Shown here: one piece after another, positions 20,301 to 63,288 of the stretch
Position numbering within the stretch: position 1 is the first letter of the stretch
Layout of the letters: each line of letters starts with the position of its first letter
Assembly (NCBI GenBank): GCA_963745235.1
Contig: CAVUXE010000046.1
Span: forward strand, 1-64,000
DNA: 64,000 nt
Reading direction: 5' to 3'
Source of the DNA: an uncultured Spirochaetota bacterium
GTDB taxonomy: Bacteria > Spirochaetota > Spirochaetia > SZUA-6 > Fen-1364
Notes under the pieces: model-generated
What the model saw: the letters and a program-made list of their open reading frames with translations, nothing else
Told to the model about the DNA's origin: nothing
The model's database searches: none
Position numbers and translations under genes: made by a program

Positions 20301-21185
20301 GCCCTCACTGGCTGAGGAAGTCGCGACTGCCAGCACGGTCGAAAAGGCAGACTCCGTGAAAGGGTCGGCCGGGGATACCTTCTCACTTTCGGCGCGCTTG
20401 GAAGCGAAGACAGGGATCTCGGGTGGCTCTCCGCGCGCAATCGCTTCCGCGAGGCGGAGAGTCGACTCCTTCGGGGGGCTGTCCAGCTCTTCTTCCAGCA
20501 TGCGTCGGCATTCCTCGAACTGGTGGCTTGCCGCGGCCCGATTTCCGTCCCACGCGTGCAGCCGCATCAACATTGCATGGGCGGACTCATCCATCCTGTC
20601 GACGCCAAGCCTCCGGTGCGCAAAGCTGATGGCTGAGCCGAAGTCTCCGGCGGCGGCGTGGCACAGGACGAGCCGGTCCAGCACGTGCACCGCCTCCAGC
20701 CGGTACTTCTCCGTCGTGAAGAATTGCCAGTCATCGAAATCCACGCTGTCCTTCAGCGTGAACCCCGCGAGAAACTCCCCGCGGAACATCCCGACTGCCT
20801 CGCTCAGAACCGGAAGACAGCCTTTGCATATCGCCTGGCGTCCGTGGGCATGGCTGCCGCAAAGGGCGAGCAGGTCTCGAGATCTCGAGATGTCGATATG
20901 GAGGTCAGGCGACTGGACCAGGCGGATGGTTTCCCGTTCCGCGTCGAGAAGTCCTTTGCCGAGCGCGCTCCGAAGCGTCGAGAGGGTACGTCGAAGCGCC
21001 GCGTGTCCGCCGGCCCGGCCGTAGCGCGACCACAGCAGTGTGACCAGCGCGTCGCGGCTCACCGGCTCCGCGGTGTCAGCGAGGTATGCCATGAGGGCGA
21101 CAGCCTTCCGCGTGTCAAGATGGACAGGGGCCCCGTCAAGCTCGATGAGTGGTGGTCCCAGAAACGCCAGACGCACCCGTGCCAT
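17284..21185 (-). CDS. SARP/BTAD + degenerate cyclase-like + AAA (STAND-like) + TPR regulator, ~1300 aa, split by a 1-nt frameshift near 19933
   Basis: N-terminal 'RLAFLGPP...RKAVALMAYLA...SRDALVTLLW'; BTAD 'FDDWQ...ESAHAMLMRL'; Walker A 'GEAGIGKS'; Walker B 'LVFEDLHWAD'; C-terminal 'LELRATMSL'. Adding one C to the C5 run at 19931-19935 joins ORFs 19902-21185 and 17284-19914. Confidence 0.85.
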
Positions 21186-45900: not shown

Positions 45901-48900
45901 TGAGCTGGACCGTAGCGCAGGAGATCGACGGGACAGGTGGGTTCGGAACCTCGGTTTCCATGAGCGGGCAGCTCGCGGTTGTCGGCGCGCCGCAGGCTAT
46001 TGGCGGCGACGGCGCGGCCTACGCGTACAGCGATCTCGGGAGGCGGCGGTCTCACCGCGCTGGGCGGCGCCCTGACGGCTTCGAACGGCGCATCCGGCGA
46101 CCTCTTCGGCCAGGCGGTCTCGGTGAGCGGCGGCTACGCGGTAGTCGGCGCCCCGGGTGTGGGCTCCAGCGAGGGGGCGGCCTACGTCTTCCTGGATTCC
46201 GCCGGAAGCTGGGCCCAGGTGCAGGAGCTGAGCGTTGCGCCGAATCCCTCCAACATCGGGCCTCCCAACGACTCCTTCGGAAGCGCCGTGGCCATTTCGG
46301 GCCCGCGGATCGTCATAGGCGCGCCCCTGCGTGACGTGACGACCGCGGTGGGCGGCGTGCCCACGACGGCTCAGGACGAAGGCGCCGCGTTCGTCTTCAG
46401 CCTGACAGGCGGCCAGTGGGGCCTGGAGACGGTGGTTGCCCCGCTCACCGGCTCGGATGCCGCGGCGGGAGACAACGTGGGCTACGCGGTGGCGGTCAGC
46501 GGGGACTTCGTGGTTGCCGGCGCGCCGCAGCTTGCCGGGCGGACGGCGTACAACAGCACCCCGGGGGTGATCAACACCTCGGGAGCCGGCTACGCCTACC
46601 TGCGAAGCGTCTCGCCCCCGACAACCGTGACCTACCCGGAGACACAGCAGACGCTCATCGACGGCGCTCAGGCCAACACGATCTCGGGCACCATCGGCGG
46701 GCTGGCAATGTCCACCGTGGAGTTCTTCGATGTCCCCAGCTTCACTATCAGCACGGGCAACGCTCCCAGCACCGTGACCATCGGCCCCGCCGGCCTGACC
46801 GCGTACGGCCTGGAGAACTTCAGCGTAAACGCGGGCTCGGCAAGCACCACGCTGGTGCTGCAAAGCCCGAACCTGACGCCGCCCCTTGTCGGTCAGTACG
46901 TGCCCACGGGGGATTTCAACGGCGCATCCTCCGGAAGCGCGCTGCCTCCGGGCGCGGGCTACATGCAGGTGACCGGGGCCTTCACGTTCAACGGCGTCGG
47001 CTCCAATACCGTGGTGGCCAGCGCGGACACCGACTGGACGCTGGACGGGACCACGCTCACCGGCGGCACCGGGGGGAACATCGTCCTGAGCGGCGTCCAG
47101 AACGTGCAGCTCATCGGCGGACCGAGCTCCAACCGCATCACCGTGGTGAGCTGGGCCGGCTCCGTCCTGGTCGACGGCAGGGGCGGGTCGGATCAGATCA
47201 CCGTGTATGCCGGGGCAGTGGCCAACTGGACGGTCAGCGAGACGACGGGCGGCCCCGCGGACCAGAACCAGCTCACCGTCATTGGCGGCGCCGGACCCAA
47301 CTCGTTCACCGTCACATCGGGTGAGATCTTCCTGGGAACGCAGGGATTCAGCTACAGCGGCATCCAGATCCTGAAGATCCTCGGCGGCCCGGGCAATGAC
47401 TCGCTGACGGTGGATGGCTCGAGCGCGGGCACCGTCATGCTGGACGGCGCCGCCGGGTCGGACACGTACACGGTTGCCGGCACTGGTTCTTTTGACGTGT
47501 GGGTGAGCGACAGCGGTCCCGGCCCCGCCCAGGGGGACACGGACACCCTGCGCGTTCCCGCAAACAGCGTCTCCGAAACGGCGGTGGGCGGCTTCTTCCG
47601 GCTCGTGTCGGGCGGCACGACCATCTATTACGACACGAGCATCGAGAAAGTGGAGCAGAACGCGGTGTCGCCCATCCTCACCGTTCAGGGCACGGGCGGG
47701 AATGACACCTTCACCGTCAACGGCTCGGTTCTGACTTTCAACTCGTTCGTGATCGACCTCACCTCGGTCACGCAGCTCACCATCGATGAAAATGGCGGCA
47801 ACGACACGATCACGGTCCTGGGAGTGCTGCCCACCCTGACATCGTTCGTCATCAACGGGGGCAGCGGCACCACGACGCTGGTGGGACCGAACGACCCGAC
47901 TACCTGGACCATAACGGGCCAGAACGCCGGCTCGGTTGGCGTGGGCAACTCGCAGGGAGGCACGCTGATGGTCTCTTTCACGAACGTGCAGAACCTGAGC
48001 GGCGGCGCGGGGTCCAACACGTTCGCGTTTGTCGGAGACTCCGCGGGCATCACCGGCAGCCTGGATGGAGGGGGCGGGCCGAACGTGATGAGCTGGTCCG
48101 GGCGATCGACCGGGGTAGCAGTGGATCTCGCTTCGGGCACGGTGACGGGTGTGGGCGGACAAGTCATGGATGTCCAAACATTCATCGCGGCAGGCGGAAG
48201 CGGGAACACGTTCATTGGCCCTGATGCCGACGCAACGTGGAACATCGACGGGACGAACAGCGGCATGCTCCTCAGCGGCGCCTCGACCTTCACCTTCGAG
48301 GGCTTCCAGAACCTGGTGGGCGGCGCGGGCTCCGATAGCTTCGCGCTCCTGCCCGGAGGATCCGTGAGCGGAGTCGTGGACGGCGGAGGCGGCGCGAACT
48401 CTCTTACTCTCTCCCCGGCGCAGCCGGATGAGGTCATTGGGGTGACCGCCACGATGGTCACGGTGGACGGCGCGGAGACGAGCTACGCGAACATCCAGGT
48501 GCTGAATGTCAGCGCGCTCGGCGGCTCCGACCAGGTCACCGTAGATCCCAGCGGAGCCGGCTTCCCCTCCTCGGTCAACATCGCCACGAGCGGCGTGGCT
48601 GACACCATCACGGTGGACCTTGCGCCGACCACGGCGACGACGATCAATATCAGCGCTGTCTCGCTTTCCACGGACACCCTCATCATCCAGGGTGCCTCCA
48701 CCCCGGATCCCGTCCTTGTCACGGACCCTCTGATCCAGTTCGACTCCCTGCAGGTGACTTTCACCAACGTGGAGAACCTCACGATCAACGGCGCGGCCGG
48801 GAATGACTCCATCACGCTCGTCGGCCCGATCGTCCCCGGGACCCTTTCGGTGAATGCGGGAACGGGTGACGTGATCGTCAACGTTGGAAGCCCTGCCATC

Positions 48901-51900
48901 GGTTCCGGCGGGACAGCAGGTGGAATTGCCTCACAGCTCATTCTGAACGGCGGCCCCGGCAACGACACGCTGAACATCGATGACTCGGGCGATACTGCCT
49001 TCACGAATGTCCAGCTTACCGCCACCGCGGTGGTTGGCCTGGGGAGCGTCATCCAGTACTCCGGCTTCGCCACCGTGAACGTGGCCTTCGGCTCATCGGT
49101 GAGCAGCCTGGTCATCGCCAGCACGGACGCGGGCATCACCAACGTATATGGGGGAGCAGGGACCGCCGTTGAGACAATCCAGTCCACCGGAGGACAGCTG
49201 ACACTGTATACCGGGGACGGGAACGACACGGTGAACGTGCAGTCCATCGGCGCTCCGGCAACCATCAGCCTCGGAGCGGGAAATGACACGGTGAACGTTG
49301 GGAGCCTGGACCCGGGGACCGGCGGAGTGGTGAGCGGGATAAGCGCTCTGCTGACCGTCAGCGGCGGCTCGGGGACTGACACACTGGTCATCGATGACTC
49401 CGGTGACGCGGCCCCGACAACCGGAACCCTCACCAACACCACCCTGGCCGGGCTGGGGATGGCAGGAAGCATATACTACCAGGGCATCGCGAACCTGACG
49501 ATTTCGCTCGGCTCGGGCGCGAACACGTTCGCGATCCTCAGCAACGACTCACAGTCCACGACCGTTGACGGCGGCGCGGGGAATGACACGTTCACGATAG
49601 CGGCAACCGCGGGAACGCAGGTCCCCGCCAGCGGTCCTTTGTTCGTGGATACCGGTAACGGGAACGACGCGGTGAACGTGCAATCCATCGGCGCTCCGGC
49701 AACCATCAGCCTCGGAGCGGGAAATGACACGGTCACGGTGGGAAGTCTTGCCCCGGGGACCGGCGGAGTGGTGAGCGGGATAAGCGCTCTGCTGACTGTG
49801 AGCGGCGGCTCGGGGACTGACACACTGGTCATCGATGACTCCGGTGACGCGGCCCCGACAACCGGAACCCTCACCAACACCACCCTGACCGGACTGGGGA
49901 TGGCGGGAAGCATCTACTACCAGGGGATCGCGAGCCTCCTGGTTGCGCTTGGTTCTGGCGTGAACACCTTCACGATCCTCAGCAACGACTCGCAGTCCAC
50001 GACTGTTGACGGAGGCGCGGGGAATGACACCTTCACGATAGCGGCCACTGCGGGAACGCAGGCCTCCGCCAGCGGGCCCCTGTTCGTGAATACCGGCAAC
50101 GGGAACGACACGGTGAACGTGCAGTCCATCGGCGCTCCGGCAACCATCAGCCTCGGAGCGGGAAATGACTCGGTGAACGTTGGGAGCCTGGCCCCCGCCT
50201 CGGGCGGAACGCTCGGCGGGATCACCGCGCTCCTCACTGTCAACGGCGGCTCAGGGACTGACACACTGGTCATCGATGATTCCGGTGACGCAACCGCGGC
50301 AACCGGATCGCTCACCAACACCACTCTGACCGGGCTGGGAATGGCGGGAGGCATTTACTACCAGGGGATTGCGAACCTCCTGGTCGCGCTTGGTTCTGGC
50401 GGGAACACCTTCACGATCCTCAGCAACGACTCGCAGTCCACGACTGTTGACGGAGGCGCGGGGAATGACACCTTCACGATAGCGGCCACCGCGGGAATGC
50501 AAGCCCCCGCCAGCGGGCCCCTTTTCGTGAACACCGGTAGCGGCGTTGACATGGTGACGATCCTCTCCACCAGCGGACCGGTCACTGTTACGACCGGCAG
50601 CGGCAACGACGCGGTGAGCGTGCAATCCATCGGCGCTGCGGCAACCATCATCCTGGGAGCCGGCACTGACACGGTCACGGTGGGAAGTCTTGCCCCAGCC
50701 ACAGGCGGTGTGGTGAGCGGGATAAGCGCCCTGCTGACTGTCAACGGCGGCACGGGGACTGATACCCTGGTCATCGATGACTCGGGTGACGCGGCCCCGA
50801 CAACCGGAACTCTCACCAACACCACCCTGGCCGGGCTGGGGATGGCGGGAAGCATCTACTACCAGGCTATTGCGAACCTGACGATTTCACTTGGTTCAGG
50901 CGGGAACACCTTCGCGATCCTCAGCAACGACTCGCAGTCCACGATCGTCGACGGCGGCGCGGGGAATGACACGTTCACGATAGCGGCAACCGCGGGAACG
51001 CAGGCCCCCGCCAGCGGGCCCCTGTTCGTGAACACCGGCAACGGTGTTGACATCGTTACGATCCTCTCCACGAGCGGACCGGTCACTGTCACGACCGGCA
51101 GCGGCAACGACCTCGTGAACGTGCAGTCCATCGGCGCCCAGGTAACCATCAGCCTCGGAGCCGGCACCGACACGGTCATGGTGGGAAGTCTTGCCCCAGC
51201 CATAGGCGGCGTGGTGAGCGGGATAAGCGCTCTGCTGACCGTCAGCGGCGGTTCGGGGACCGACACACTGGTCATCGATGATTCGGGTGACACGGCGCCG
51301 CAGCCCCTGGTTCTTGGCAACGATCATATCGGCGGGCTGGGCATGGCAGAGGGGATCGACTTCTCCTCAATCGCCAGCCTCGTTCTCCTGCTTGGATCGG
51401 GGGCAACAGACATCACCATCATCGGGACGCCGTCGGGCACCACGACAACCCTGACCCTTGGCCCGGGCAACGACACGGTGAACATCCAGGCAACCGAAGG
51501 CGCCCTGGATGTCATAACGGGAGCCGGAGCGGACACCATCAACATCTCCTCCGACGCGCCGGCGGACAGCGGGACCCTGGCCGGCATCCTCGGCGCGGTC
51601 ACCATTGACGCCGCGCGGGGTATGGCCACGCTGAATGTCAGCGATTCGGGAGACACGCTGCCGTCCCCCAACGTGATCATCACAGCCACCTCGATCACGG
51701 GACTCTCCCCCGCTGCCATCACTTATGTCACGAGCGGCGGGACTTTCAACGGCGGTGTCAATATCTCCGCCGGTTCGGGCGGCAACACCATCGTGATCCA
51801 GTCCACGAATCACGACCCCGGCACCACCACCACGGTCTGGTCCGGCAACGGCTCGGACACCGTCACGGTGACGGAGACCGACCCGACGTCCCTGGTGATC

Positions 51901-54075
51901 AACGGACAGGCTGGAAACGACGTGATCGATGCCACGGCTACAACAACGGGCGTGACGATCACGGACGGGAACGGGAATGACGTCATCCTCGGCGGTTCGG
52001 GGAATGACACCATCACGGCGGGCAACGGAAACGACCAGATCATCGGCGGCCTCGGGTCCAACACTATCACCGCGGGCAACGGAAACGACATCGTGATTGG
52101 CGCGGACGGGGAAGTTGTGCGGGTGGGCGGCCAGGTCGTCCTGGTGGAGTCCACCAGCGGGACGGAGGGCGGGAGCAACGTGATCACCGTGGGCAGCGGC
52201 AACGACGTGATCATTGGCGGCCCGGGAAACAACACAATTTCGGCAAACGGCGGACTGGCAACGCAGGATATCGTGCTCGGCCACGACGGCTACGTCACCT
52301 TCGGAGGAACGGCAAGCTTCGGTCCGGGGGAGGCCGGCTCGACGATGAGCTTCAACTTCGTCGACTCTTCCGAGGCCTATGTGAGCGGAGTGTTTGGAGC
52401 TCCCGGTGCGGCAGCAGGAGACTGGAACAACCTCGACGGCCTCTCCGGAACCTACGGTGCTTCCCCCGGTCAGTCCGCGCTGCTGAGCAACGGCGGCTCC
52501 GCCCCTGGTGTCACGGTCCAATGGAATGCGGCCCAGGGAAATGAGGTCACGGCGGCCACCGTGAGCGGGCTGTCATACTACTACGCTTCCTACAACGTGT
52601 ACGTCTACCTTGGCGGTGACGGCTCGGCGCCTTCGAGCGCCGTGAGCGACGGTTCGACCACCTACTACGTCACTGACGCCCAAGGCCGCAGCTTCTGCGG
52701 GACCCTGATCCAGGTGACATCGACGAACCCGAGCGCGCCGGGAGTCGGCAACTATGTCGTGTTCAGCGCTCTGACAGGAAACAGCTTCACAATCAGCGCG
52801 TCGAGCACCGCTTCCGGCGCCGGGCGCCACCAGGCCGCGGGGATGGCGGGCCTTCAGATCGTGGGCCAGAGCCAGCCGATCGACAGGATTGCCACGACGC
52901 TTCCGACGGTAGGCGGCAACGACACCATCATCCTTGCCGGCGGCTCGAACATTGTCTTCGGCGGCGCAGGCAACAATACGATCACCATCGGCGGGGCGGG
53001 CAGCAACATCGTGGCGGGCGGCAACGCCGAGGCCACGCTCGTCAAGGGCTCCGTTCGCTCCGTGCAGACCACGGATCCCGAGGTGGCCGGCAATGACGTG
53101 ATCACCACCGGCGCGGGAGCGGACATCATCTTCGGTGGCAGCGGCAACGACATGCTGAGCGCCGGGGCAGGCAACAACGTGGCGTTCGCGGACAACGCCG
53201 AGGTGACCTTCTTCCCCGCCGGCCAGCTGGGGATCCAGCTCCTGTTCCCGGCCTACGGCGGCAATGACACGGTGATTGTCGGCTCCGGCACGAACCTCTT
53301 CTTCGACCAGGCGGGCAGCGTCCGCTACATTTTCCCGGCCGGCGTCAGTGGCAGCGACACGATCGTGGAAGCGGGCTCCTGCGACTGCGCTGCCCAGGGG
53401 GCTCGGCACGACACATTTGATTTCAGCGGGTTTGGGGCTCCGATCGGCATCGACTACGGCGTGACGCAGACCCACTTTGTCGGCGGGAGCTCCGCCACCG
53501 CACCTCAGCTGGCGGTAACCGTCTCCAACCCGGGCAGCGTCGAGCAGGTCATCTCGACCGCGCGGGACCAGATCCTGATCGGTTTCTTCGACGTCGACAG
53601 CATGACCCACGGGAAGGCCCCGGCGGGCCTCTACGACGCGCACCATGATGAGGATGCCTCCCTGGCGGTGATCGTGAACGCCGGGGCGGGCGATGACCTT
53701 CTCACTGTGGCCAGCGCCGGGTGCGACGACATCACGGTGGCGGGCGGATCGACATCGACCACGCCCTGGTCTCTTGCAGTCGAGGATCCCAGCCTCGTTG
53801 TGATCAATACCGCGGATGCCGGCGCCGTCGTGAAGACAGGCGGCCTGCGCCGCGACCAGCTCGGGGACCTTATCGTGAACAAGGGTGCCGCGGCCACGAA
53901 TCCGCCTCCCTCGCAGCCGGACCACGACCAGTCCGGATGCGGCGACGGCTCATGCGATCCCGGCGATGGTTCGGGCAACTTTTGCGGCCTCGGCTTCACG
54001 GTGACCGGGTTTGCCAGCCCGACCATGAGCCTCCTCACCGCGGCGGATGAGGACCAGCGGAGCTTCGATCAGTAA
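21921..54075 (+). CDS. Giant LEPR-XLL domain repetitive adhesin (~10,716 aa when four +1 frameshifts are repaired)
   Basis: N-terminus 'FQLEQLEPRLLLSA', no Sec signal. ORFs 21921, 30145, 40955, 43098 and 45979 step +1 each time with continuous protein character across each junction. (32155-4)/3 = 10717 codons including the stop. Confidence 0.88.
24500..30100 (+). repeat. ~365-aa diverged protein repeats ('AFNTVGW..N.L...DALLG' x6, with 'YEYMG..DL...NY.D..W' module x5)
   Basis: AFNxxG motif at ~24530, 25640, 26700, 27815, 28910 and 30000 (~1.1-kb period; W follows in the first five). Confidence 0.85.
42730..46600 (+). repeat. FG-GAP (integrin-alpha-like beta-propeller) repeat region
   Basis: More than a dozen 'FGxSVAISGxxxVVGAP....GAxYVF' units. 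Confidence 0.88.
49220..51290 (+). repeat. Tandem 441/441/501/501-bp repeats plus a partial unit with RTX-like GGAGND motifs
   Basis: 'GND(T/A/L)V(N/S)VQSIGA' units start at 49220, 49661, 50102, 50603 and 51104 with high nucleotide identity. Confidence 0.92.
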
Positions 54076-54710
54076 TTGAACGGCGCAGGCGGCTTTGGGC
54101 CGGGCGGGGTGAACCCGTAGTCCACGCCGGCGAGGACCGCGAGCCTCAAGCGGCGGGTCGGCGGCAGGGGATCGACGAACATCATCACGGGGAGGGAGAC
54201 GCCTCCAAAGGAGAACCTCCATCCAACCGCGTAGACGATGGAAGGGGCGAGGGAGACGCCGCTGCCATCGTCGGCAAGCTCGAGTTGCGGCCCGAGGCCG
54301 GCCTCCAGGCCGAAAGGAGTTGTCGCTCCCAGGAGAAGGTCGAGAACCGGGAGCGCAAAGTTCTGATCCAGCCCGACCACCGTGAGGAGCTGGCTGAAAT
54401 AAAGGTGAAAGCCGGTCTGGGCAAGAGGCACCTGCTCCGACAGGTCCACGCCGATCTGGCTGTAGACTGGGAAGTATGTGTGCCCGCTGGGAAAGATACG
54501 CTGGACCGTGTCGTTGAAGTCTGAGGGTTGCGCAATCTCGCCGCCAACCCCGACCCTGGGCCCCAGGTAGAGCCAGGGAGAGCGCGGCGGCGACGGCTCG
54601 GCCTGCGCCGGGGCGGTCCCTCCCTCGTCCTGCGCCCAGGCGATGCCGGGTTCAGCTGCCAGGATAACCCCCAGGAAAGCAATCAGCCCCACGAATCGCC
54701 AGAGTTTCAT
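54069..54710 (-). CDS. Secreted protein with amphipathic beta-strands (putative small outer-membrane barrel); last gene of the export operon
   Basis: Signal peptide '...GIAWA|Q', 'WLYLGPRVGVGG', 'IVYAVGWRFSFG', aromatic C-terminus 'FNY'. It starts 16 bp after the secA-like stop with a purine-rich SD. Confidence 0.7.
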   Translation of the reverse strand: MKLWRFVGLIAFLGVILAAEPGIAWAQDEGGTAPAQAEPSPPRSPWLYLGPRVGVGGEIAQPSDFNDTVQRIFPSGHTYFPVYSQIGVDLSEQVPLAQTGFHLYFSQLLTVVGLDQNFALPVLDLLLGATTPFGLEAGLGPQLELADDGSGVSLAPSIVYAVGWRFSFGGVSLPVMMFVDPLPPTRRLRLAVLAGVDYGFTPPGPKPPAPFNY

Positions 54711-54726: not shown

Positions 54727-56715
54727 TCATACTATGTCCCGACGCGCAAACGACAGGGAGTCATCCAGCCAGGTATCCATCCGCAGCACTGACCGCCTGC
54801 GGGCCGCGGCAAGCCGCTGGGCGAGCGCCTGGGCCAGGCGCGCCGCACCCGTGGCCTGAAGCCCGGCCCCGGGGAGCCTCCCCCGCAGCTGCGCCCCGAT
54901 GAGCAACCGCGCGGGGCGCGGGATGAATCTCCGCACTACCTCGTCCTCCAGGCTCATGTACAGGCGCGCGCTGCCGGGGTCCCCCTGGCGGGCGGCTCGG
55001 CCGAAGAGCTGCCTATCGATCCTCGACGACTCGTTGCATTCGGCGACGATCACGTGGAGGCCGCCGCGCCCTGCCACGCCGTTGCCCAGGCGGATGTCCG
55101 TGCCGCGTCCGGCCATGTTGGTGGCGATGGTGACAGCCCCCGGCGCTCCGGCGAGGGTGACGATCCCTGCCTCCTCACGATGGCGAACCGCGTTCAGGAG
55201 CCGGTGCGGGAGCCGGAGGGCGTCCAGTCTCCGGGAAAGCGACTCGCTGTCCTTGACGCTGCGAGTGCCCACCAGGACTGGACGGTCTTCGCGGTGAAGC
55301 ATCTGCACTTCGTCGATCACTGCCCGCCATTTCGACTGCGAGTCCGCGTAGGCGCGCGACGGGAAGAGCTGTCGCCGGGATGGCCGGTTCTCCGGCAGCG
55401 TGATGGTCGGAAGCTCGTAGATTGTCCACATCTCATCCGCGACCTCCCGAGCCGTCCCGGTCATTCCCGCAAGCCTGTGAAAAAAGCGATAGAAGCGCTG
55501 GAAGCTCAGGCGTGCCAGGGTCTCGGTGGGAGGGGTCAGGGGAAGGTTCTCCTGGGCCTCGATGAGCTGGTGCAACCCGAACCGCCACGTGCGTTGGGGC
55601 ATCTGTCGCCCGGTGAACTCGTCAACGATCACCACCTTCCCGTCCTGGATGACGTACTGGTGATCGCGATGGAAAAACTCACGGGCCGTCAGGGCCTGCT
55701 CCACGAGGTCCATGTAGCCGCCAAGCCCTCGATAGCGCGCTCCCGATTGTTCCACGAGCTTTCCCAGCCGATCCGAGAGCCGCGGAGACAGCTCGATCTC
55801 CTTGCGGCGCTCGTCCACCGTGTAGTCCGCGTTCCGTTCCAGCCCGGCGCTCACCGCGTGCGCAATCTCGCATGCTTCCAGGAAGAGGTCGTTCGGAAGG
55901 GAGTGCGAGATGACGAGCGGTGTCACCGCTTCGTCGATCAGTATGCTGTCCGCTTCGTCCACGATGGCGTAGTGGATGCCGCGCATGACGAGACCCTTCT
56001 CGATCTCAGCCTGCCTGCCGAGGAGTGCGGAGATCTGGCGCCGTCCGGCGTTCTGAAGATTGCCCAGCCAGAGACGGTCCCGCAGGAAATCCGCCACGAT
56101 CTCCTTGTTCGTCGTGTAGGTGACGTCCATGCGGTAGGCGTCCCGGCGAGCGTCGCGCCCCATGGGTCCCGTCACGCAGCCCACCGACAGCCCGCTGAAC
56201 CTGTACAGCGGGGCCATCCAGCGCGCGTCACGCTCCGCCAGGTAGTCGTTGACGGTGATGATATGGCAGGGGAGGCCGGCCCAGCCGCGGATCACCGCGG
56301 CAAGCGACGCGGTGATCGTCTTTCCTTCGCCCGTGGCCATCTCCACGAGGTACCCCTCGTACAAGGCAAGCGAGCCCGCCAGCTGCACGGTGTACGGCCG
56401 CATCCCCAGGTGCCGTTCGGCCGCTTCCCGCAGCGCGGCGAGCGCCTTCGGCACGAGACTCTCACTGCGGTCCGGGCGACGCCTGAATTGCTCCTTGAGA
56501 TCGAAGAGCCGGCTCTTCAGGACGCCGTCCGTGAGGGATGCCCACGCAGGGGCTTCCTTGTCTATCTGCTCCGCCTTTGCGAGCATGAGCCCCACGTTGC
56601 CGGGTCCCCGGGCAAGCCAGCCCGCCAGGGCGAAGAGGCGGGCGTCCAGGCCCTGGTAGATGTCCCGCGGCCGGCGGATGTTCGTGCGGCGGTACTCATT
56701 GGTGGGCGTGCTCAT
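54727..56715 (-). CDS. Accessory truncated SecA (SecA_DEAD + PPXD + NBD2 only), 662 aa
   Basis: 'EMATGEGKT', 'TVNDYLAERD', 'IVDEADSILIDEA', 'IVDEFTGR', 'GMTGTA', 'IATNMAGRGTDI', 'RIDRQLFGRAARQGDPGS', 'SLED'. It ends ~60 aa later. The likely start is ATG 56715, 4 bp after the upstream stop. Confidence 0.93.
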   Translation of the reverse strand: MSTPTNEYRRTNIRRPRDIYQGLDARLFALAGWLARGPGNVGLMLAKAEQIDKEAPAWASLTDGVLKSRLFDLKEQFRRRPDRSESLVPKALAALREAAERHLGMRPYTVQLAGSLALYEGYLVEMATGEGKTITASLAAVIRGWAGLPCHIITVNDYLAERDARWMAPLYRFSGLSVGCVTGPMGRDARRDAYRMDVTYTTNKEIVADFLRDRLWLGNLQNAGRRQISALLGRQAEIEKGLVMRGIHYAIVDEADSILIDEAVTPLVISHSLPNDLFLEACEIAHAVSAGLERNADYTVDERRKEIELSPRLSDRLGKLVEQSGARYRGLGGYMDLVEQALTAREFFHRDHQYVIQDGKVVIVDEFTGRQMPQRTWRFGLHQLIEAQENLPLTPPTETLARLSFQRFYRFFHRLAGMTGTAREVADEMWTIYELPTITLPENRPSRRQLFPSRAYADSQSKWRAVIDEVQMLHREDRPVLVGTRSVKDSESLSRRLDALRLPHRLLNAVRHREEAGIVTLAGAPGAVTIATNMAGRGTDIRLGNGVAGRGGLHVIVAECNESSRIDRQLFGRAARQGDPGSARLYMSLEDEVVRRFIPRPARLLIGAQLRGRLPGAGLQATGAARLAQALAQRLAAARRRSVLRMDTWLDDSLSFARRDIV

Positions 56716-56719
56716 GGGT

Positions 56720-58882
56720 CTACAACTGGTAGCGGGCCTGGAGCATCTGCCGCAGCCTCCGATAGCCCTGCGCCATGATGGGCTCCGGAGGGAGCTTGAA
56801 ATTGACCTCACCGGAGATGCCCTGAAAGAGGGCAGCGGCGTCGTTCCTCTGAATGCCCAACCGCAGCTCGTAGAATGACTGTGCGGCAATGTCCCCGCCT
56901 GCATCGCTGCTCGTCGGGAGGTTGCCCCCGCCTTGGAGCCCCAGCGCGGCGGAAGGGAGCCGCGTCTGCCCCGCGGGGATCCTCGTGATGCTCGTGACCG
57001 AAAGCGGGGCGTCTGCCTGGCCGGCCAGCCTGACCTTCGAGCCCCGGATGACGTTGGAGAAAACCGCGGAGGCGTCCTGCTGCGGGATCACGCAGACAAA
57101 GTCAAACCTCGAGTCATCGACGACCTTCCCGATCGAGGTCCCTCTCGGTATCCACATGTCGCTCATTTCATCCAGGTCCGGAGCAACCCAAAGCCCGTCC
57201 CGATCCGCCCTGACCACCAGGGCCTCCTCCTCCCGCTCCACGCGGTCCAGCTGGTCCTGGACGCTTGCGATGCTGTCGTCTATCGCGGGGAGGTCAGCGG
57301 GGCTTCTGGAGAGCGCCCGTGCCCGCACTGCCCTCGACTCGTCCATGTGAGCCTGGATCTCCTGCATCCGCGCGGCCAGCTCTGGATTTGCCAGCTGGAC
57401 CAGGATGTCTCCTTTGTGGACGCGGGAGTCCGACGGCACGAGGATCCGGGAAATGAAACCGGGAACCTCATTGACGATGGCGCCCTGTTCGGATGCCTGC
57501 AGGATCCCGGGGGCCCTGAAGCCTCGGGGCACTGGCACCACAACGAGGAGGCCCGCGGCCAGGGCCACGGCGGCCACCGTGACGCACGCGGCGCGCAGCC
57601 GGTTCTTTTCCAGGCGCGGATTGGCGACGAGGTAGTGGAGGACGCGCAGAAACGGAGTGATGACCCAGGCCACGGCGCACACTGCGGCCATGATGATTCC
57701 GAGCAGGAGGAAGCGGTCCGCGATGACGAGCAGGATCGTGGAAAAGACCACGAGCTTGTACAAGCCGCTTGCCGTTCCGAAGACGGTGAGCCAGCCGGCT
57801 TCAGAGGGCGTGGCCGCGGGGCTTTCGGACTTTCGCACCCCGAACGCGTAGTGCTCCACCAGGTGCCTCAGGTGCTGGTTGGCCCGGCTGGCCAGGTTGG
57901 GTATGTCCAGCAGGTCCGAGAGGATGTAATAGCCGTCGAAGCGCATCAAAGGATTCACGTTGAATACGATTGTAGAGATCGAGGCGACGAAAATGCTGTC
58001 ATACGCAAGGGCATGGAGGGTCCCCGGCCCGGTGGCCGCCCAGACGAACACCGCGAGCCCCGCGAGGAAGAGCTCCGCGACCATGCCCGCCGCTCCCACG
58101 AGCGCCCGCTGCCACTTGCTGCGGAACGACCATGCCGCAGTGGTGTCCGTGTACGGAAGCGGATTGAAGATCAGGAACATGAGCCCCATCGTGTGGACGC
58201 TGCCGCCGAATCGGCGCACGGCGCACGCATGGCCAAGCTCGTGGAACGTCTTGATGAGTATCAGGGAGAGATACAGCAGGGGCAGGTTGGACAGCGACAG
58301 CACTCCCTGGGCCTGGACCCTGAGCTGCGCGAAGTGATTGACGGCCACGGTGAGGGCCCCCAGCACAACCGCGGCCCAGAGGAGCCCGCCGGCGGGACCG
58401 ATCAGAAGGCGGATTGCGGGCAGGAGACGCTTGAGCAGCCCGTTCGGGTCGAACAGGGGAATCCGAAAGAACATGATGCTGCGAAGGGTGGCCCGCCTGA
58501 CGGACTGTTTCTGCCTGCGATACCGCTCGAAGAGCGTCTCACTGTCCGCGGGGAGATCGTAGTGAAGAAGGTTCGCGTGGTAGAGCTGGGAAAGGAGCTG
58601 GATGACCTCCTCCTGGCCGGGGGCGTTCTGCGGATCAAGCTCCACGCTCTCCCGCCACACATCGTCCACCGTGCGCCCGCTTTCCAGCCGGCAGAGAAAC
58701 TCATAGGCGGCCGGCCGCAGCCGGAAGAACTGGTCGCTGAACGGCTCGTGCAGCACGTACCAGCGCGATCCGCGGAAAAGCTGACGGCGCGCGCGCACGC
58801 TGGAGCGGAGGGAAAGCCTCTGGCCGGCAAGGCGGTACCACGATTCATGGAAGATCTTGTGCTCCGCGGGAGCCGCTGCCAT
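56720..58882 (-). CDS. PqqD/RRE-like domain + M50 (site-2) metalloprotease + HlyD-type membrane-fusion domain
   Basis: 'KTFHELGH' (HExxH), 'NPLMRFDGYY', multiple TMs, C-terminal lipoyl-like/coiled-coil MFP. N-terminal 'WYVLHEPFSDQFFRLRPAAYEFLCRLESGRTVDDVW...VIQLLSQLYHANLL' resembles a 3-strand/3-helix PqqD fold. Confidence 0.88.
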   Translation of the reverse strand: MAAAPAEHKIFHESWYRLAGQRLSLRSSVRARRQLFRGSRWYVLHEPFSDQFFRLRPAAYEFLCRLESGRTVDDVWRESVELDPQNAPGQEEVIQLLSQLYHANLLHYDLPADSETLFERYRRQKQSVRRATLRSIMFFRIPLFDPNGLLKRLLPAIRLLIGPAGGLLWAAVVLGALTVAVNHFAQLRVQAQGVLSLSNLPLLYLSLILIKTFHELGHACAVRRFGGSVHTMGLMFLIFNPLPYTDTTAAWSFRSKWQRALVGAAGMVAELFLAGLAVFVWAATGPGTLHALAYDSIFVASISTIVFNVNPLMRFDGYYILSDLLDIPNLASRANQHLRHLVEHYAFGVRKSESPAATPSEAGWLTVFGTASGLYKLVVFSTILLVIADRFLLLGIIMAAVCAVAWVITPFLRVLHYLVANPRLEKNRLRAACVTVAAVALAAGLLVVVPVPRGFRAPGILQASEQGAIVNEVPGFISRILVPSDSRVHKGDILVQLANPELAARMQEIQAHMDESRAVRARALSRSPADLPAIDDSIASVQDQLDRVEREEEALVVRADRDGLWVAPDLDEMSDMWIPRGTSIGKVVDDSRFDFVCVIPQQDASAVFSNVIRGSKVRLAGQADAPLSVTSITRIPAGQTRLPSAALGLQGGGNLPTSSDAGGDIAAQSFYELRLGIQRNDAAALFQGISGEVNFKLPPEPIMAQGYRRLRQMLQARYQL

Positions 58883-58891
58883 GCCTTCCTC

Positions 58892-60769
58892 CTACCACCA
58901 CAGGCGCAGCCGCAGGAAGTCCGCCGTGCGGTGCGTCAGGACCCAGAGGAGTCCCCTGGTTCCCGCATCGAGCCTTGCCACTCCTGTCATCCCCGGGCGC
59001 CACCAGCTCGCGGGGCCCGTCGGGAAGTTGCAGTCCACGATGAAGATGTTTCCCGTATTCTTCGTGACCGCCTCCGGCTCGATGCGGGTTACGGTGATCC
59101 GAGAGCTTTCCTGCGGCCGCGCGGTCAGGGCAATCTCTCCTCCCCGCGCATTCTGCAGCTCGCGGATATCCCTCTCACTGACCTCCAGCCGGGCATACAG
59201 GCGGTCGATGCGGGCGAGCTTGAAAAGCGTGTCGCCCTGGTGCACCGGCAGCCCGATGCGCTCCCGCAGGTCTCCTTCCACGATGATTCCTGAGAAGGGC
59301 GCCTTGATGACAGACTCATCCAGGTGGTAACGCACCTGGTCGTATTGCGCCGAGGCCTGGTCCACGCGGGCCTGCGCTATCCGCATGTCAGCCAGGGAAA
59401 AAGTCGCCCGCGCCTTGGCAAGCTCCGCCTGGTAGGACTCCCTCTCTGCGACGATCTGCGCCTCCGAAAGGAGGAGGTCCGTCTGGTCGAGGGCAAGAAG
59501 TTCCTGCCCTTCCTGGACGGTGTCTCCGATCCGTACGTCCACTTTCTCGATGTGACCGTCCAGGGGGGCGCTCAGGACGGCGACGTCGTCCGTTCGCAGC
59601 GTGACAGGCGCCTTGACCCGGTAGGGAACGCGCCCGAAGAGCACGAATGCCAGGAGGACAGCCCCGATGATTGCGAGGACCTTGAGCCATGTGTGCTCGA
59701 ACCCGACAAGGCGGGCGAAAACCTCCTTCGCCCCCAGGGCCAACCGGGCCCCGACCCATCTATCCCATCTCTTGAGGTCGGAGAGTCTCGGCCCGGCCAG
59801 GTCGCAGAACAGGCGCAGGTGCCGCACCTCGCGCTCGGAGAAGGGGGCCGTATTGCGCTCGCAGGTCAGGACCGCCACGGGTTTCCGGTCGATGCGAAGG
59901 GGAAGGGAGCACAGGTACCGTGAATCGTGGGCGCGCGAAAAGCCCTGATGGTCCCGGGTCACCGGGGCGCCCTGCGAGCCGGTTGCCGGCACGACGATAT
60001 CGCTGTCCTGGTCAAAGGCCTCTTCCATGGCTGCCTCGAGCAGCTGGACCGCGTCCGATGCGCGGTCGAAGCGGTCAACATGGCTCGTGGCCGCAAGCTG
60101 GATGTAGCCCTTTTCGTTCCACCCCAGGCTCACCCGCTCGCAGGCCAGGCGCGCGGCCGTCTCGTTGCAGAAAGTCATTGCGGCGGGGAGGAAGCGCCCA
60201 TGGTCGTTGAGGACCACGACCAGGTCCAGCGCGCCGGCAAAGCTTTCAACCTGGGCCTTCGATTCTCGGGCCATGCGCCGTTCCTGGTAGCTTGCCGGTG
60301 CGTCGGCCGCAAGAAGCAGGCGCCGCGAGATCTCCTTTGCTGAAACGAGGCTGGCGTTCTTCAGTCTCAGCACCGCGAGACACAACCCCTCCCCGACGCC
60401 GGCTTCGACCCGCAGCGCGACGAGGCGCTCACCGTCGCTTTCCCAGAGGGCGGCCCCTTCGCGTGCGCACTGTTCTGCCACCGCATCCAGCTGCGCCGGA
60501 AGATCAGCCTCCGCGCGGCCCCCATCCGCGTCCTGATTGTCTTTCGCAACGAAGCGCCACGCGGATCCGCGCTCCCGGCCGCGAACCATGATTGCTCCCC
60601 ACCCGGCTTCCGCCATGGACGACAGGATCCCCAGGAAAGCGCGCCAGAACTGCGCGGGCTCGCCCTGGAACCTCCGCAGCAGCGCGAGCTGCTCCAGGGA
60701 ACGCAGGTACGCCTCCTGCGGCCAATCGACGCGCCCCTGGTCCGGGATAGCCGCCTCTTCCCTGCTCAT
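58892..60769 (-). CDS. GAF-domain HlyD/efflux membrane-fusion protein
   Basis: GAF 'YLCSLPLRIDRKPVAVLTCER...FSEREV', one TM, MFP 'LSAPLDGHIEKVDVRIGDTVQEGQEL...IKAPFSGIIV...WWRPGMTG'. Confidence 0.88.
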   Translation of the reverse strand: MSREEAAIPDQGRVDWPQEAYLRSLEQLALLRRFQGEPAQFWRAFLGILSSMAEAGWGAIMVRGRERGSAWRFVAKDNQDADGGRAEADLPAQLDAVAEQCAREGAALWESDGERLVALRVEAGVGEGLCLAVLRLKNASLVSAKEISRRLLLAADAPASYQERRMARESKAQVESFAGALDLVVVLNDHGRFLPAAMTFCNETAARLACERVSLGWNEKGYIQLAATSHVDRFDRASDAVQLLEAAMEEAFDQDSDIVVPATGSQGAPVTRDHQGFSRAHDSRYLCSLPLRIDRKPVAVLTCERNTAPFSEREVRHLRLFCDLAGPRLSDLKRWDRWVGARLALGAKEVFARLVGFEHTWLKVLAIIGAVLLAFVLFGRVPYRVKAPVTLRTDDVAVLSAPLDGHIEKVDVRIGDTVQEGQELLALDQTDLLLSEAQIVAERESYQAELAKARATFSLADMRIAQARVDQASAQYDQVRYHLDESVIKAPFSGIIVEGDLRERIGLPVHQGDTLFKLARIDRLYARLEVSERDIRELQNARGGEIALTARPQESSRITVTRIEPEAVTKNTGNIFIVDCNFPTGPASWWRPGMTGVARLDAGTRGLLWVLTHRTADFLRLRLWW

Positions 60770-61593
60770 TCCTCCCCTTTCGACGGGAAAAGGAGGGTAC
60801 CCGTAATGCCCGGAAGGACCCGACCCTCGGGATTGTCAAAAAGCACCTTGATCTCCCGCAGCCCGCTGGAAGGATCAACCACGGGTGAGACGTAGTCCAC
60901 GGTACCCCGAGAGCCGGACTGCGGCAGACCGGGAACCGATATACGAACCTTCATGCCGACAGCGAATCCGGCAGAAGCCGCCGCATCCACGTGGGCGTCC
61001 AGGCGGCACTTGGAGACATCCACGATGCGCACCACCGGGGCCGGCGGAGCGCAGGAGTCCCCGAGGTAGACGAAAAGCTTGACGATCACGCCGTCGAACG
61101 GAGCGACGATGGTCCGCCGGGCGAGTTGTGCCTGGGCGATCTCGTAGTCGATCTTCTCCCGCTCTCCCGCCTCTTCGAGGCGCTTCACCTCGAGGGCCGC
61201 CAGCCTGGCCTCCAGCTCCCGCTGCAGCAGGTCGTTCTCCGGCACCGAGTGGGTGGTGGTATACAGCTCCCGGGTGCTCGCGAGCAGCCGCGTGTAGGCT
61301 TCCAGTCTCTGCCTGGCTTCGTCCAGCTCCACGGTGCTCTGCCAGATCTGCTGCCTGCGCTGGACCTCCAGGGATTCCAGGTCCTTGTCCAGCTCGAGGA
61401 TCTCTTCCCTGGCGCGCACGGTATCCCCTTCCTTCTTGAAGACCTGGGACACCGTTCCCGGCACGCTCACGCTGAGAGTCACGTCATGGTAGGGCTCAGT
61501 GATCCCCCTGACAGCCTGCTGCTGGGCGGCGGCCTGCCGCGGGATGGTGAGAACCAGCATGGAGAGCATGAACGTCACGACGAGCTTTGTCAG
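60766..61593 (-). CDS. Efflux RND/HlyD periplasmic adaptor subunit (possible CTG start at 61593; alternatives 61570 and 61686)
   Basis: 'VTLSVSVPGTVSQVFKKEGDTV', 'IVAPFDGVI', 'YVSPVVDPSSGL', 'LPGITG'. ATGA overlap with the next gene. Confidence 0.88.
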   Translation of the reverse strand: MTKLVVTFMLSMLVLTIPRQAAAQQQAVRGITEPYHDVTLSVSVPGTVSQVFKKEGDTVRAREEILELDKDLESLEVQRRQQIWQSTVELDEARQRLEAYTRLLASTRELYTTTHSVPENDLLQRELEARLAALEVKRLEEAGEREKIDYEIAQAQLARRTIVAPFDGVIVKLFVYLGDSCAPPAPVVRIVDVSKCRLDAHVDAAASAGFAVGMKVRISVPGLPQSGSRGTVDYVSPVVDPSSGLREIKVLFDNPEGRVLPGITGTLLFPSKGEE

Positions 61594-61722
61594 CGGACTC
61601 TCCTCGGCGCCTCGAAACGATTGTGTAGAAAGTACAGAGCCGGCGGGCGGGAGTGCAAGTTCTTTTTCCCTTGCTTTCTGGCGCATATTTTCCCGACCTT
61701 TTTTCCAGAATTGGAGGAAGCG

Positions 61723-63288
61723 ATGAAAGGCCGATCAGTCCTCGGCGTCTTCAGAGCGCTCGCGTTCTCCTGCGTCCTGTTCAACGCAGGGTCCACAGAG
61801 GCGCAGGAAATACCGGCGCCTGGCCGCATGATGAGCCTCGCCTCTTTCCTGGGGGACGTCGTTCGCACGAACCCCGGGGTGCGAGAGGCCCGCCTGCAGT
61901 GGCTCATCCAGACGGGGCAGGCGCGCGCGGAATGGGGCACCTACGAGCCCGTTCTCGCGGCCAGCGCGAAGGAGGAAGGGCTGCGCCAGCAGAACACGGC
62001 CCTTGAACAGTTCCAGCAGCTGGGAACCCCTCTGTACGACGAGAAGAACGACGCCTACTCCCTCGGGGTCGAGGGGAATCTTCCCACGGGGGCAAACTAC
62101 AATCTGGGCGCCTCCATCACCAGGTTGCAGGATACCTACGTCGAGCAGGGACAGTTCAAATCCTTCGTGGGCATTTCCGCCCAGCAGCCCCTCCTGAAAG
62201 GGTTTACCCACGGCGCCCCGATGGGCTCCATTCGAACCGCTTTCGAGGACCGCATCATTGCGTTTCACGAGTATCGCCGGCAGCTCATGTCCGCGGTGAC
62301 CCAGGCAGAGGCGGCATACTGGAACCTTGCGTTCGCGCAGGAAGTGCTTCGCATGGACTCCGAATCCGTCCAGGTGGCCCGCGACCTCCTCACGACCGCG
62401 AAGGAGGCAGCGCTCGTGGGGAAAATGTCCGACCTGGATGTTCGCGAAGCGGAGGCGGAGCTTGCCTCCCGCGAGGCAGCGCGGGAAGACGGGCAGATTT
62501 CCCTGAACGAGGCCCTGCGGCAACTGCGGCTGCTCACCGGCGGTGCGGGGGCAAAACCAGCAAACGACAGTATCGTTGCCACCGACCCGCTTGTTGCCAA
62601 CGAGGGAGGGCAGTGGGACCCGGCGGCCGAAGGCCGCAGCTACCAGGAGTGGGCCGAGCGCGCGCAACCCGATTACATGATCGAATCGGAGCAGGTGCTC
62701 AAGGAGGGCCTCCTGGTCGACCTGCAGAAGGACCAGGCTCTGCCTGAGCTCAGCCTCACGGGCAGTTACGGGTACAGCGGGCTCGGCGACACGCCTCAGG
62801 ATTCCCTTGGCAGCCTTGGGAGCCAGAGCTATCCGACGTGGTCGCTCGGGCTGGAGCTCCACATGCCCCTCCTCCTGGGCGTGAAGCAGCGCAACGAGCT
62901 CGACGTGGAGGAGCTCAAGAGGGAGCTCGCAACCGTGCGGCTCGCCGCGGTGCGCCAGCAAATGACAGACACCATCGTCTCCCTTGTCCAGAGCATCGCG
63001 ACACTCCGTGAGCATATCGACAACCAGCGAACGGTGGTCCAGGTCAAGCGCGACCTCCTGGCTGTCCAGACCGAACGGCTGCACGGCGGGACGGCCAGCC
63101 TCCTGGAAGTCTACAACGCCGAGGATGAGGTGCGGCAGGCCAGGCAGCACGAGCTGGAGGCAGTGGTCCGTTTCCGGCAGGCGTTGATGGAGCTGGGCCG
63201 GGCGAGTGGAGCCGTGCTCAGGGACCATGCCCTGGAACAGCTGAAGGACGGCCAGGTTGAGCTGAGGGAGGACCTGCGGTCACGGTAG
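61723..63288 (+). CDS. TolC family outer-membrane efflux protein (521 aa)
   Basis: GGAGG SD, signal peptide ending 'TEA|Q', 'QQPLLKG', 'EAAYWNL', 'LPELSLTGSY', 'WSLGLELHMPL'; two OEP repeats. Confidence 0.9.
   Translation: MKGRSVLGVFRALAFSCVLFNAGSTEAQEIPAPGRMMSLASFLGDVVRTNPGVREARLQWLIQTGQARAEWGTYEPVLAASAKEEGLRQQNTALEQFQQLGTPLYDEKNDAYSLGVEGNLPTGANYNLGASITRLQDTYVEQGQFKSFVGISAQQPLLKGFTHGAPMGSIRTAFEDRIIAFHEYRRQLMSAVTQAEAAYWNLAFAQEVLRMDSESVQVARDLLTTAKEAALVGKMSDLDVREAEAELASREAAREDGQISLNEALRQLRLLTGGAGAKPANDSIVATDPLVANEGGQWDPAAEGRSYQEWAERAQPDYMIESEQVLKEGLLVDLQKDQALPELSLTGSYGYSGLGDTPQDSLGSLGSQSYPTWSLGLELHMPLLLGVKQRNELDVEELKRELATVRLAAVRQQMTDTIVSLVQSIATLREHIDNQRTVVQVKRDLLAVQTERLHGGTASLLEVYNAEDEVRQARQHELEAVVRFRQALMELGRASGAVLRDHALEQLKDGQVELREDLRSR

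Follow-up and report, generated by a model that had tools for sequence, protein, structure and literature searches.

A wingless SecA-like ATPase encoded with an M50 protease-adaptor fusion next to a giant LEPR-XLL gene: a candidate motor for giant-protein export in a Spirochaetota bacterium

Introduction

What could a SecA motor drive once it has lost the parts with which SecA engages the SecY channel? This question is raised by a 64,000-nt stretch of DNA from an uncultured Spirochaetota bacterium (GenBank assembly GCA_963745235.1, contig CAVUXE010000046.1, positions 1 to 64,000; hereafter, the window), in which a minus-strand gene at 54727..56715 encodes a SecA-like ATPase of 662 amino acids (aa) that ends shortly after its motor domains. 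The gene is packed into an operon with three periplasmic adaptor paralogues, one of them fused to an M50 membrane protease, and the operon abuts a giant gene whose product starts with a LEPR-XLL tag. Export of proteins of at least 10,000 residues is largely an open question, and SecA is, in the textbook account, bound to SecYEG. We describe here the domain make-up of the SecA-like protein, the truncation shared across its family, its clade separate from canonical SecA, the order of the surrounding genes, the occurrence of LEPR-XLL genes beside them, and, in the M50 fusion, an RRE-like fold and a site-2-protease fold with intact catalytic motifs. The explanation that we favor, and consider somewhat probable, is that the SecA-like protein is the cytoplasmic ATPase of a dedicated envelope-spanning exporter of LEPR-XLL giants that employs no ABC, RND or MFS pump.

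A SecA motor without the SecY-engaging region

The longest open reading frame (ORF) at this locus spans 54727-56904 on the minus strand and encodes 725 aa. The ATG at 56715, however, is located 4 nt past the TAG of the upstream gene, and the corresponding methionine is invariant, being the start in all 20 aligned relatives; for these two reasons, we dropped the reading from the ATG at 56904 and take the product to be 662 aa. There are no stops within the frame. Pfam searches identified SecA_DEAD at residues 46-430 (4.8e-91), SecA_PP_bind, that is, the preprotein cross-linking domain (PPXD), at residues 285-386 (5.7e-24), and P-loop_SecA from residue 452 (1.6e-51), the latter corresponding to the second nucleotide-binding domain (NBD2, residues 452-~598). 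In a 21-row alignment comprising the window protein, the housekeeping SecA of the same genome and 19 relatives, the Walker A motif GEGKT (129-133), the DEAD motif (253-256) and the NBD2 motifs are invariant. The DEAD motor (NBD1 and NBD2) and PPXD characteristic of canonical SecA are thus both present, and the reading of a first-pass annotation of this DNA, a 662-aa protein with all motor motifs and PPXD intact, is borne out.

The AlphaFold model of the protein (pLDDT 81.8, pTM 0.80) has SecA structures as its top fold matches, and the best superpositions are with substrate-engaged SecA-SecY complexes (6itc_A, TMq 0.78, root-mean-square deviation (rmsd) 3.7; 5eul_A, 0.77). Residues 50-600 align to residues 12-539 of a 765-residue solved SecA chain, the sequence of which matches the Bacillus subtilis SecA entries in the same table. 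Past NBD2, the protein retains two helices (600-611 and 617-646), the second of which (~30 residues) matches, in the alignment, the first part of the housekeeping SecA's scaffold helix. Alignment and model agree that nothing is left of the wing domain, of the scaffold beyond this helix (two-helix finger included), of the linker or of the zinc-binding (SEC-C) tail, and the housekeeping SecA continues for ~300 residues beyond the point where the SecA-like protein ends. The first-pass annotation had listed the scaffold along with the wing, finger and SEC-C regions as lacking; the last three are indeed gone, but a scaffold stub (~617-646) has been kept, and the protein ends 71 residues past the SLED motif (588-591) rather than ~60 as estimated there. 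Canonical SecA inserts its two-helix finger into SecY and keeps its ATPase in check through its C-terminal region.

The family has also gained sequence. The N-terminal extension (residues 1-~45), which the first-pass annotation had considered atypical, is real and conserved across the family in the alignment, placing ~25-45 residues ahead of the canonical start (consensus MSxLTxDYRRTxIRxPxxLxSGLDA). NBD1 contains a family-specific insertion of ~21 residues (~215-242), the PPXD is shorter than in canonical SecA, and the protein ends in a strongly conserved tail modeled with low confidence (VLRMDTWLDDSLSF; DTWLDDSLSF at residues 647-656). Also among the structure matches is SecA-N68 (PDB 5k9t), a laboratory truncation of Escherichia coli SecA that is likewise cut just past NBD2 and shares the motor fold and the PPXD clamp; compared with SecA-N68 and with canonical SecA, however, the natural family retains the scaffold stub and adds the N-terminal extension, the NBD1 insertion and the conserved tail. 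The ATPase of SecA-N68 is deregulated.

The short form is a family trait

The truncation could reflect this particular assembly, which the first-pass annotation named as a possible refutation of its reading. In a search of 5.8 billion proteins, however, 116 of the 120 best relatives (54-100% identity) are 646-680 aa long, the other four being 830, 602, 558 and 522 aa. Because the length is shared so widely, the truncation is not an assembly artefact; it is a family trait. The 830-aa relative (P0065), in which 74% of the query is covered, may be a fused or mis-started form. Where relatives bear taxonomic names, these indicate Spirochaetota, Deltaproteobacteria, Gemmatimonadota, Margulisiibacteriota, Kiritimatiellia, Latescibacterota and Chitinivibrionales. 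Metagenome contigs contain at least 528 relatives matched by the tail alone, and one independent metagenome contig (L014) is 100% identical to the window copy.

The same genome encodes a separate housekeeping SecA, for which the first-pass annotation had proposed to look. This gene, on another contig (G000:C52), encodes a higher-scoring protein of 931 aa that ends in a SEC-C motif (CPCGSGKKYKYCHGQ). Against the NCBIfam models, the SecA-like protein scores below the cut-offs for canonical SecA (TIGR00963, 554.9 vs 800; NF009538, 555.5 vs 814) as well as for all SecA2 models (TIGR03714, 442 vs 930; TIGR04221, 415.9 vs 725; TIGR04397, 480.3 vs 1085; NF012136, 338.7 vs 1100). In a quick maximum-likelihood tree, one branch separates 34 short forms from 7 canonical SecAs (SH-aLRT 100, length 1.13). 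Between this genome and another carrier (G005), the housekeeping SecAs are 88% identical compared to 61% for the short copies, which fits either separate acquisition or faster change of the short copy. With a clade of its own and a second, full-length SecA in the genome, the protein is a SecA paralogue distinct from the housekeeping copy, as had been claimed.

A third, weak SecA_DEAD match in the genome (G000:C73:91563-91754, 28.9 bits, 64 model positions) lies inside a 929-aa frame. In public records, proteins of the short family go under the names 'DEAD/DEAH box helicase', 'prepilin peptidase' and 'hypothetical protein'.

An operon of adaptors without a pump

The SecA-like gene is the fourth of five minus-strand genes with gaps or overlaps of -4 to 16 nt, in the order adaptor, GAF-adaptor, M50-adaptor fusion, SecA-like ATPase and a 213-aa protein. 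The first gene (60766..61686) encodes a HlyD/RND-type periplasmic adaptor of 306 aa; translation may in fact begin at an internal codon, given that the ATG at 61686 is only 6 nt from the start of a divergent gene on the plus strand. That gene (61693..63288) encodes a 531-aa TolC-like outer-membrane factor with a signal-peptide-like N-terminus (OEP, 4.1e-31; type_I_sec_TolC, 1.2e-21, the latter below cut-off). The second gene of the operon (58892..60769) encodes a 625-aa protein that consists of a cytoplasmic N-terminal domain, a GAF domain (199-326) and a periplasmic HlyD/RND-type adaptor, and the third (56720..58882) encodes the 720-aa fusion of an RRE/PqqD-like domain, an M50 protease and a HlyD-type adaptor. 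The fifth (54069..54710) encodes a 213-aa protein with a signal-peptide-like start that matched no Pfam or NCBIfam family; its nearest named Atlas clusters are small outer-membrane beta-barrels, which we treat only as a lead, and only the cassettes nearest to this one have the gene. Among the ORFs scanned, neither those of the cassette nor others in the window showed an ABC-transporter domain, and no SecY2 or Asp genes were seen.

To gauge the conservation of this arrangement, we compared 83 further loci (4 genomic, 79 metagenomic), a set from which the window's own copy and one duplicate contig had been removed. The M50-HlyD fusion gene is directly upstream of the SecA-like gene in 46 of the 48 loci that extend at least 2300 nt upstream, whereas the plain adaptor and the TolC-like gene vary in position. 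The link to the M50 fusion and the GAF-adaptor that the first-pass annotation had drawn is thus reflected in adjoining genes of one operon. In the two exceptions (L026:9533-10372 and L087:9410-10342), the ORF represents only the C-terminal 280-311 residues of a SecA-like relative; these pieces adjoin giant ORFs, have no M50 fusion upstream and look like cassette remnants.

A site-2 protease with a leader-binding fold

The 720-aa fusion appears to bring together a leader-binding domain (residues ~14-112), a protease membrane domain and a periplasmic HlyD-type adaptor (residues ~455-720). The Peptidase M50 match scores 29.2, above the Pfam cut-off of 27.2, and the HExxH and NxxPxxxxDG motifs (HELGH, 214-218; NPLMRFDG, 310-317), including H214, E215, H218, N310 and D316, are invariant in 26 homologues of the fusion. 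A structural model of residues 1-430 (pLDDT 81.2) consists of a small strand-plus-three-helix domain (~14-112) followed by the membrane core, which aligns to the site-2 proteases RseP (Z 9.3-10.1), MjS2P (Z 8.5) and SpoIVFB (Z 7.5-7.7).

When re-aligned to individual structures, the N-terminal domain matched leader-bound structures of the lasso peptide B1 protein (Z 9.4, rmsd 2.9, 84 residues aligned of an 85-residue chain) and of TbiB1 (Z 9.0-9.1), as well as PqqD (Z 9.2) and, at Z 7.5-8.3, cyanobactin heterocyclases, and the alignments with the RREs of PqqD, lasso B1 and TbiB1 take in 84-89 residues of chains of 85-94 residues. A Pfam search of the first 150 residues at E-values up to 10 gave no match, PqqD included, so that the RRE assignment is based on the fold. 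Annotators of some plasmid homologues label the whole fusion 'PqqD family', and 'PqqD family peptide modification chaperone' is its public name. The first-pass annotation had brought a leader peptide into play, an idea that would fit the predicted RRE/PqqD-like fold at the N-terminus of the protease.

We also predicted a complex of the SecA-like protein with residues 1-338 of the fusion; its score of 0.26 and mark of 0.32 speak neither for nor against binding.

LEPR-XLL giants accompany the cassette

The giant gene (21921..54075, plus strand, ~10,700 codons) converges on the operon and ends 6 nt inside the end of the 213-aa gene. Its product starts MKRSKSDFQLEQLEPRLLLSA, with the LEPR-XLL motif (FQLEQLEPRLLLSA, 21942..21995, plus strand) located 7 residues past the start codon, and matches the NCBIfam LEPR-XLL model NF012209 with 25.3 bits (cut-off 17). 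Aligned leaders display a basic stretch followed by F-x-L-E-x-L-E-P-R-[LI]-L-L-[SN]-[AG], and the stretch past the motif (LLLSASPLL...) is mildly hydrophobic. The protein, of a surface type, contains FG-GAP and RTX calcium-binding repeats and only 13 cysteines in ~10,716 residues (0.12%). The gene consists of five frame segments, with frame switches near 30200, 41090, 43160 and 46040 (four in ~32 kb), which may be due to assembly errors in repeats or to decay of the gene; relatives at other loci exceed 3000 codons without a break.

Within the 5.8-Mb genome, NF012209 has a single match, in the gene abutting the operon, and 14 control genomes have none. All five other cassette-bearing genomes carry exactly one match each, and in four of the five, the SecA-like gene is followed on its own strand by the match, which begins 145-850 nt downstream, although two of these four represent the same contig binned twice; the match in the fifth genome is on another short contig. 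Two loci from one project, L007 and L008, labeled Deltaproteobacteria and Bacteroidota, are apparently the same contig, given identical tblastn statistics and an identical leader, and at least one of the bin assignments is probably wrong.

We took 89 candidate frames from the loci and scanned the N-terminal 150 residues of each; NF012209 was at or above the cut-off in 16 of the 83 further loci and just below it in 2, and none of the 71 other frames matched. The tag heads ORFs of 600 to more than 3000 codons, and four additional loci contain only a giant ORF cut at the 5' end. The cassette, represented by the M50 fusion, was found in none of 300 sampled genomes of the window's phylum and none of 250 from the phylum of another carrier. 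Among these 550 cassette-less genomes, LEPR-XLL is present in two, a weak match (18.6 bits) in one of the 300, where we found only canonical-like SecA matches and no M50 fusion, and a stronger one (G390, 25.6 bits) in one of the 250. We report these numbers as counts, with no statistical test, because related genomes are not independent.

Annotated plasmids extend the link to cultured bacteria. With the M50 fusion as the tblastn query, 64 plasmid records matched, 13 of them over at least 80% of its length, and we inspected four regions. In Pontibrevibacter nitratireducens, a 31.8-kb gene for a 'LEPR-XLL domain-containing protein' is directly upstream of the cassette, and the genes after it encode, in this order, DUF3467, an adaptor, the M50 fusion (labeled 'PqqD family'), the motor (661 aa, 'DEAD/DEAH box helicase') and a further adaptor. 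In Pseudosulfitobacter sp. DSM 107133, a 38.8-kb LEPR-XLL gene precedes genes for an adaptor, a protein annotated as 'site-2 protease', SapC, the motor (674 aa, 'prepilin peptidase') and a further adaptor, and in Mesorhizobium ciceri R30, a 31.6-kb 'Ig-like' gene precedes the same set. The giants of these three cassettes are 10,500-12,900 aa long, two of them named LEPR-XLL by the annotators; the three motors are 42-45% identical to the SecA-like protein of the window and belong to the same length class; and no ABC transporter is annotated in any of the three. In the fourth region, on a Rhizobium johnstonii plasmid (L094), the M50 fusion is located at the start of the circular record, and the incomplete gene table shows no SecA-like gene. 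Some alphaproteobacterial cassettes thus add DUF3467 or SapC genes that the window lacks, and no DUF3467 was found in the window's own genome (85.7% complete).

A candidate exporter and the evidence for and against it

From this arrangement, we infer a set of physical contacts and a path and direction of transport that would begin with recognition of the LEPR-XLL leader of the giant by the RRE/PqqD-like domain of the M50 fusion. The motor would be anchored to the membrane through its family-specific N-terminal extension and its C-terminal tail instead of through contacts with SecY, and it would grip the unfolded chain in its PPXD clamp and push it, N-terminus first, into a passage built from the membrane domain of the M50 protein, the TolC-like duct and the three adaptor paralogues. 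The M50 protease would then take off the leader, the calcium-binding repeats would fold outside the cell, and the GAF domain could gate the system. Docking on the M50 or GAF partner and an inability to use SecY, both put forward in the first-pass annotation, would be consistent with this scheme.

Several observations weigh against it. The tree that sets the short family apart was built from short forms and canonical SecAs, with SecA2 sequences on neither side of the branch. The Foldseek E-values of the N-terminal domain of the fusion are 0.18-0.76, and the Z-scores become strong only upon re-alignment. To our knowledge, a site-2 protease has not been described as a protein channel. The giant gene in the window, split over five frames, may be broken or mis-assembled, and its RTX repeats lie near the C-terminus of the product; in classical type I substrates, such repeats go with a C-terminal signal. 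In 14 of the 28 loci for which at least 8 kb is available outside the core, this sequence reveals no LEPR-XLL start and no cut giant ORF. Finally, in G390, the LEPR-XLL match (C28:757-795) heads a 6985-codon frame, and the genome shows no M50-HlyD match and only canonical-like SecA matches; it is possibly a counter-example to the link between cargo and machine or else an incomplete genome.

Among the alternatives, two are about equally improbable. One is a two-step route, in which the short SecA would act as a SecA2-like accessory that feeds the giant through SecYEG, leaving only processing and the outer-membrane step to the M50, GAF, adaptor and TolC-like proteins. Accessory SecAs without parts of the C-terminal region are known, SecA2 of Mycobacterium tuberculosis having no wing domain, and the intact motor and PPXD, the best superposition on substrate-engaged SecA-SecY and the mildly hydrophobic stretch past the leader motif would all suit such a role. 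However, everything past the first ~30 residues of the scaffold helix is missing, the two-helix finger included; the scores fall far short of the cut-off of every SecA2 model; what the gene is coupled to in 46 of 48 loci is the M50 fusion and not a secY copy; and the conserved N-terminal extension and tail suggest a different docking surface.

The other is that the motor is no translocase at all, serving instead as an unfoldase, holdase or feeder for the M50 protease, or keeping a chain of 10,000 residues unfolded, with the transporter encoded elsewhere. A site-2 protease with invariant catalytic motifs fused to a leader-binding fold, the lack of a recognized channel-forming pump in the cassette and the addition of DUF3467 or SapC genes in some alphaproteobacterial versions are compatible with this view, but the three adaptor paralogues and the TolC-like duct recur together with the motor and without a pump, which would be hard to explain if transport were powered elsewhere.

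Less probable than either is a small-peptide system, akin to those of bacteriocins or other ribosomally synthesized and post-translationally modified peptides (RiPPs), in which the RRE and M50 domains would mature a short leader peptide for export and the giant would be merely a neighbor. The fusion matches the daptide intramembrane protease model NF041824 (6.5e-53), although its score of 180 is below the cut-off of 300; its N-terminal domain has the RRE fold used by RiPP enzymes; and half of the well-flanked loci lack a giant gene. Yet LEPR-XLL is the N-terminal motif of giant ORFs at 16 loci and on two annotated plasmids, and elsewhere it is rare, being present in only 2 of 550 genomes. A truncated pseudogene or assembly artefact, brought to mind by the C-terminal pieces at L026 and L087 and the four frame changes in the neighboring giant gene, is refuted to the point of being negligible by the stop-free frame, the shared length of 116 of 120 relatives, the invariant motor motifs and the independent identical contig.

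We accordingly return to the dedicated exporter as the preferred explanation. In its broadest form, to which we give roughly even chances, the cassette would represent an unnamed type of Gram-negative secretion, in which a wingless SecA stands in for the ABC transporter, the RRE-M50-adaptor fusion reads and removes the LEPR-XLL leader, and proteins of 5,000-13,000 residues are threaded N-terminus first through the adaptors and TolC. If this is true, the LEPR-XLL tag, named by curators without an assigned pathway, would be explained and gain its machine; SecA-type motors would gain a second, SecY-independent channel; and the combination of SecA, adaptors and TolC would be a new way of energizing one-step secretion. 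The hypothesis is directly testable because the system occurs in cultured, tractable alphaproteobacteria.

Relationship to known systems

The family and its neighborhood have been described before. Kamneva, Poudel and Ward (2015, PLoS One, PMC4452313) reported 'secondary SecA_DEAD domain proteins' whose wing and scaffold are lost or fragmentary, and which form a clade apart from canonical SecA with a patchy, transfer-like distribution; Methylobacterium extorquens AM1 is one of the carriers. The neighbors listed there are Peptidase_M50/HlyD, GAF/HlyD and HlyD proteins, sometimes with OEP and without an ABC transporter, and the authors proposed in silico that the SecA-like motor replaces the ABC ATPase, with the M50 protein as the membrane part. 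The window protein shows the same features, that is, SecA_DEAD present with SecA_SW absent or fragmentary, a separate clade, and M50/HlyD, GAF/HlyD and HlyD neighbors, and we assign it by domain content, clade and neighborhood to this secondary SecA_DEAD (wingless SecA) family; the finding as first noted is not new, given that this family and its neighborhood were published in 2015. The available portion of that article contains the words 'giant', 'LEPR' and 'adhesin' 0 times and names no cargo; it notes only weak M50 similarity, makes no mention of a leader-binding domain and has no member of the Spirochaetota among the carriers of this locus. The present analysis adds the cargo link to the LEPR-XLL giant and the RRE/PqqD-like leader-binding fold. 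The giant as likely cargo and the divergent TolC-like gene had escaped the first-pass annotation, as had the 2015 publication. Our literature search found no experimental study of this system; the LEPR-XLL tag turned up in two papers, neither of which ties it to a machine, and follow-up to the 2015 article was limited to two citing mentions.

Comparisons with better-known machines set the cassette apart in several ways. Like SecA2 of Gram-positive bacteria and mycobacteria, the short motor would be a second SecA copy for a small, special set of cargo, but at 760-780 aa, SecA2 proteins are longer and retain the two-helix finger. Type I secretion (HlyB-HlyD-TolC; LapBCE) resembles the cassette in that HlyD-type adaptors and a TolC-like duct are encoded beside a giant, cysteine-poor protein with calcium-binding repeats; here, by contrast, there is no ABC transporter, three different adaptors are present, one of them fused to a protease, and the putative signal is N-terminal, whereas type I substrates carry a C-terminal, uncleaved secretion signal. 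With the leader recognition of RiPP systems (PqqD, lasso B1/TbiB1, the RRE of cyanobactin heterocyclase), the cassette shares the RRE fold, and with the daptide protease (NF041824), an M50 membrane protease with HExxH, but here a single polypeptide combines the RRE and protease with a periplasmic adaptor, and the tag is carried by a substrate of thousands of residues rather than by a short peptide.

Giant proteins and SecA-type motors have been connected elsewhere. West-Roberts et al. (2023, bioRxiv 10.1101/2023.11.21.568195), citing PMC4452313, describe giant proteins of Omnitrophota with an embedded wingless SecA, for which they propose a role in the giants' own export. As in the window, a SecA motor and preprotein-binding domain without scaffold or wing is associated with giants; the Omnitrophota motor, however, is part of the giant polypeptide, whereas that of the window is a separate 662-aa protein in an operon with adaptors and TolC. 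In Chlorochromatium, according to a 2026 preprint, giant proteins with SapC and TolC-like genes at their flanks are exported, as determined by experiment, and a secA gene was acquired recently; its accessible text does not discuss an M50 protein.

Other features of the window

A 497-aa minus-strand ORF (61735-63228) was considered as a sixth gene of the operon and rejected as an antisense shadow of the TolC-like gene; it gave weak tblastn matches in relatives and illustrates that, in G+C-rich DNA, apparent homology can arise from a conserved gene encoded by the opposite strand. At the other end of the window, a 2939-aa frame on the minus strand (1-8817) runs off the edge; it yielded no Pfam or NCBIfam family and no LEPR-XLL match, with only a weak hint of the macroglobulin domain MG4 near its start. 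Between this frame and the giant gene, upstream of and divergent from the latter, a minus-strand segment (17284-21185) encodes an AAA_16 ATPase of 876 aa and a BTAD-domain regulator of 427 aa, which are possible regulators of the giant gene.

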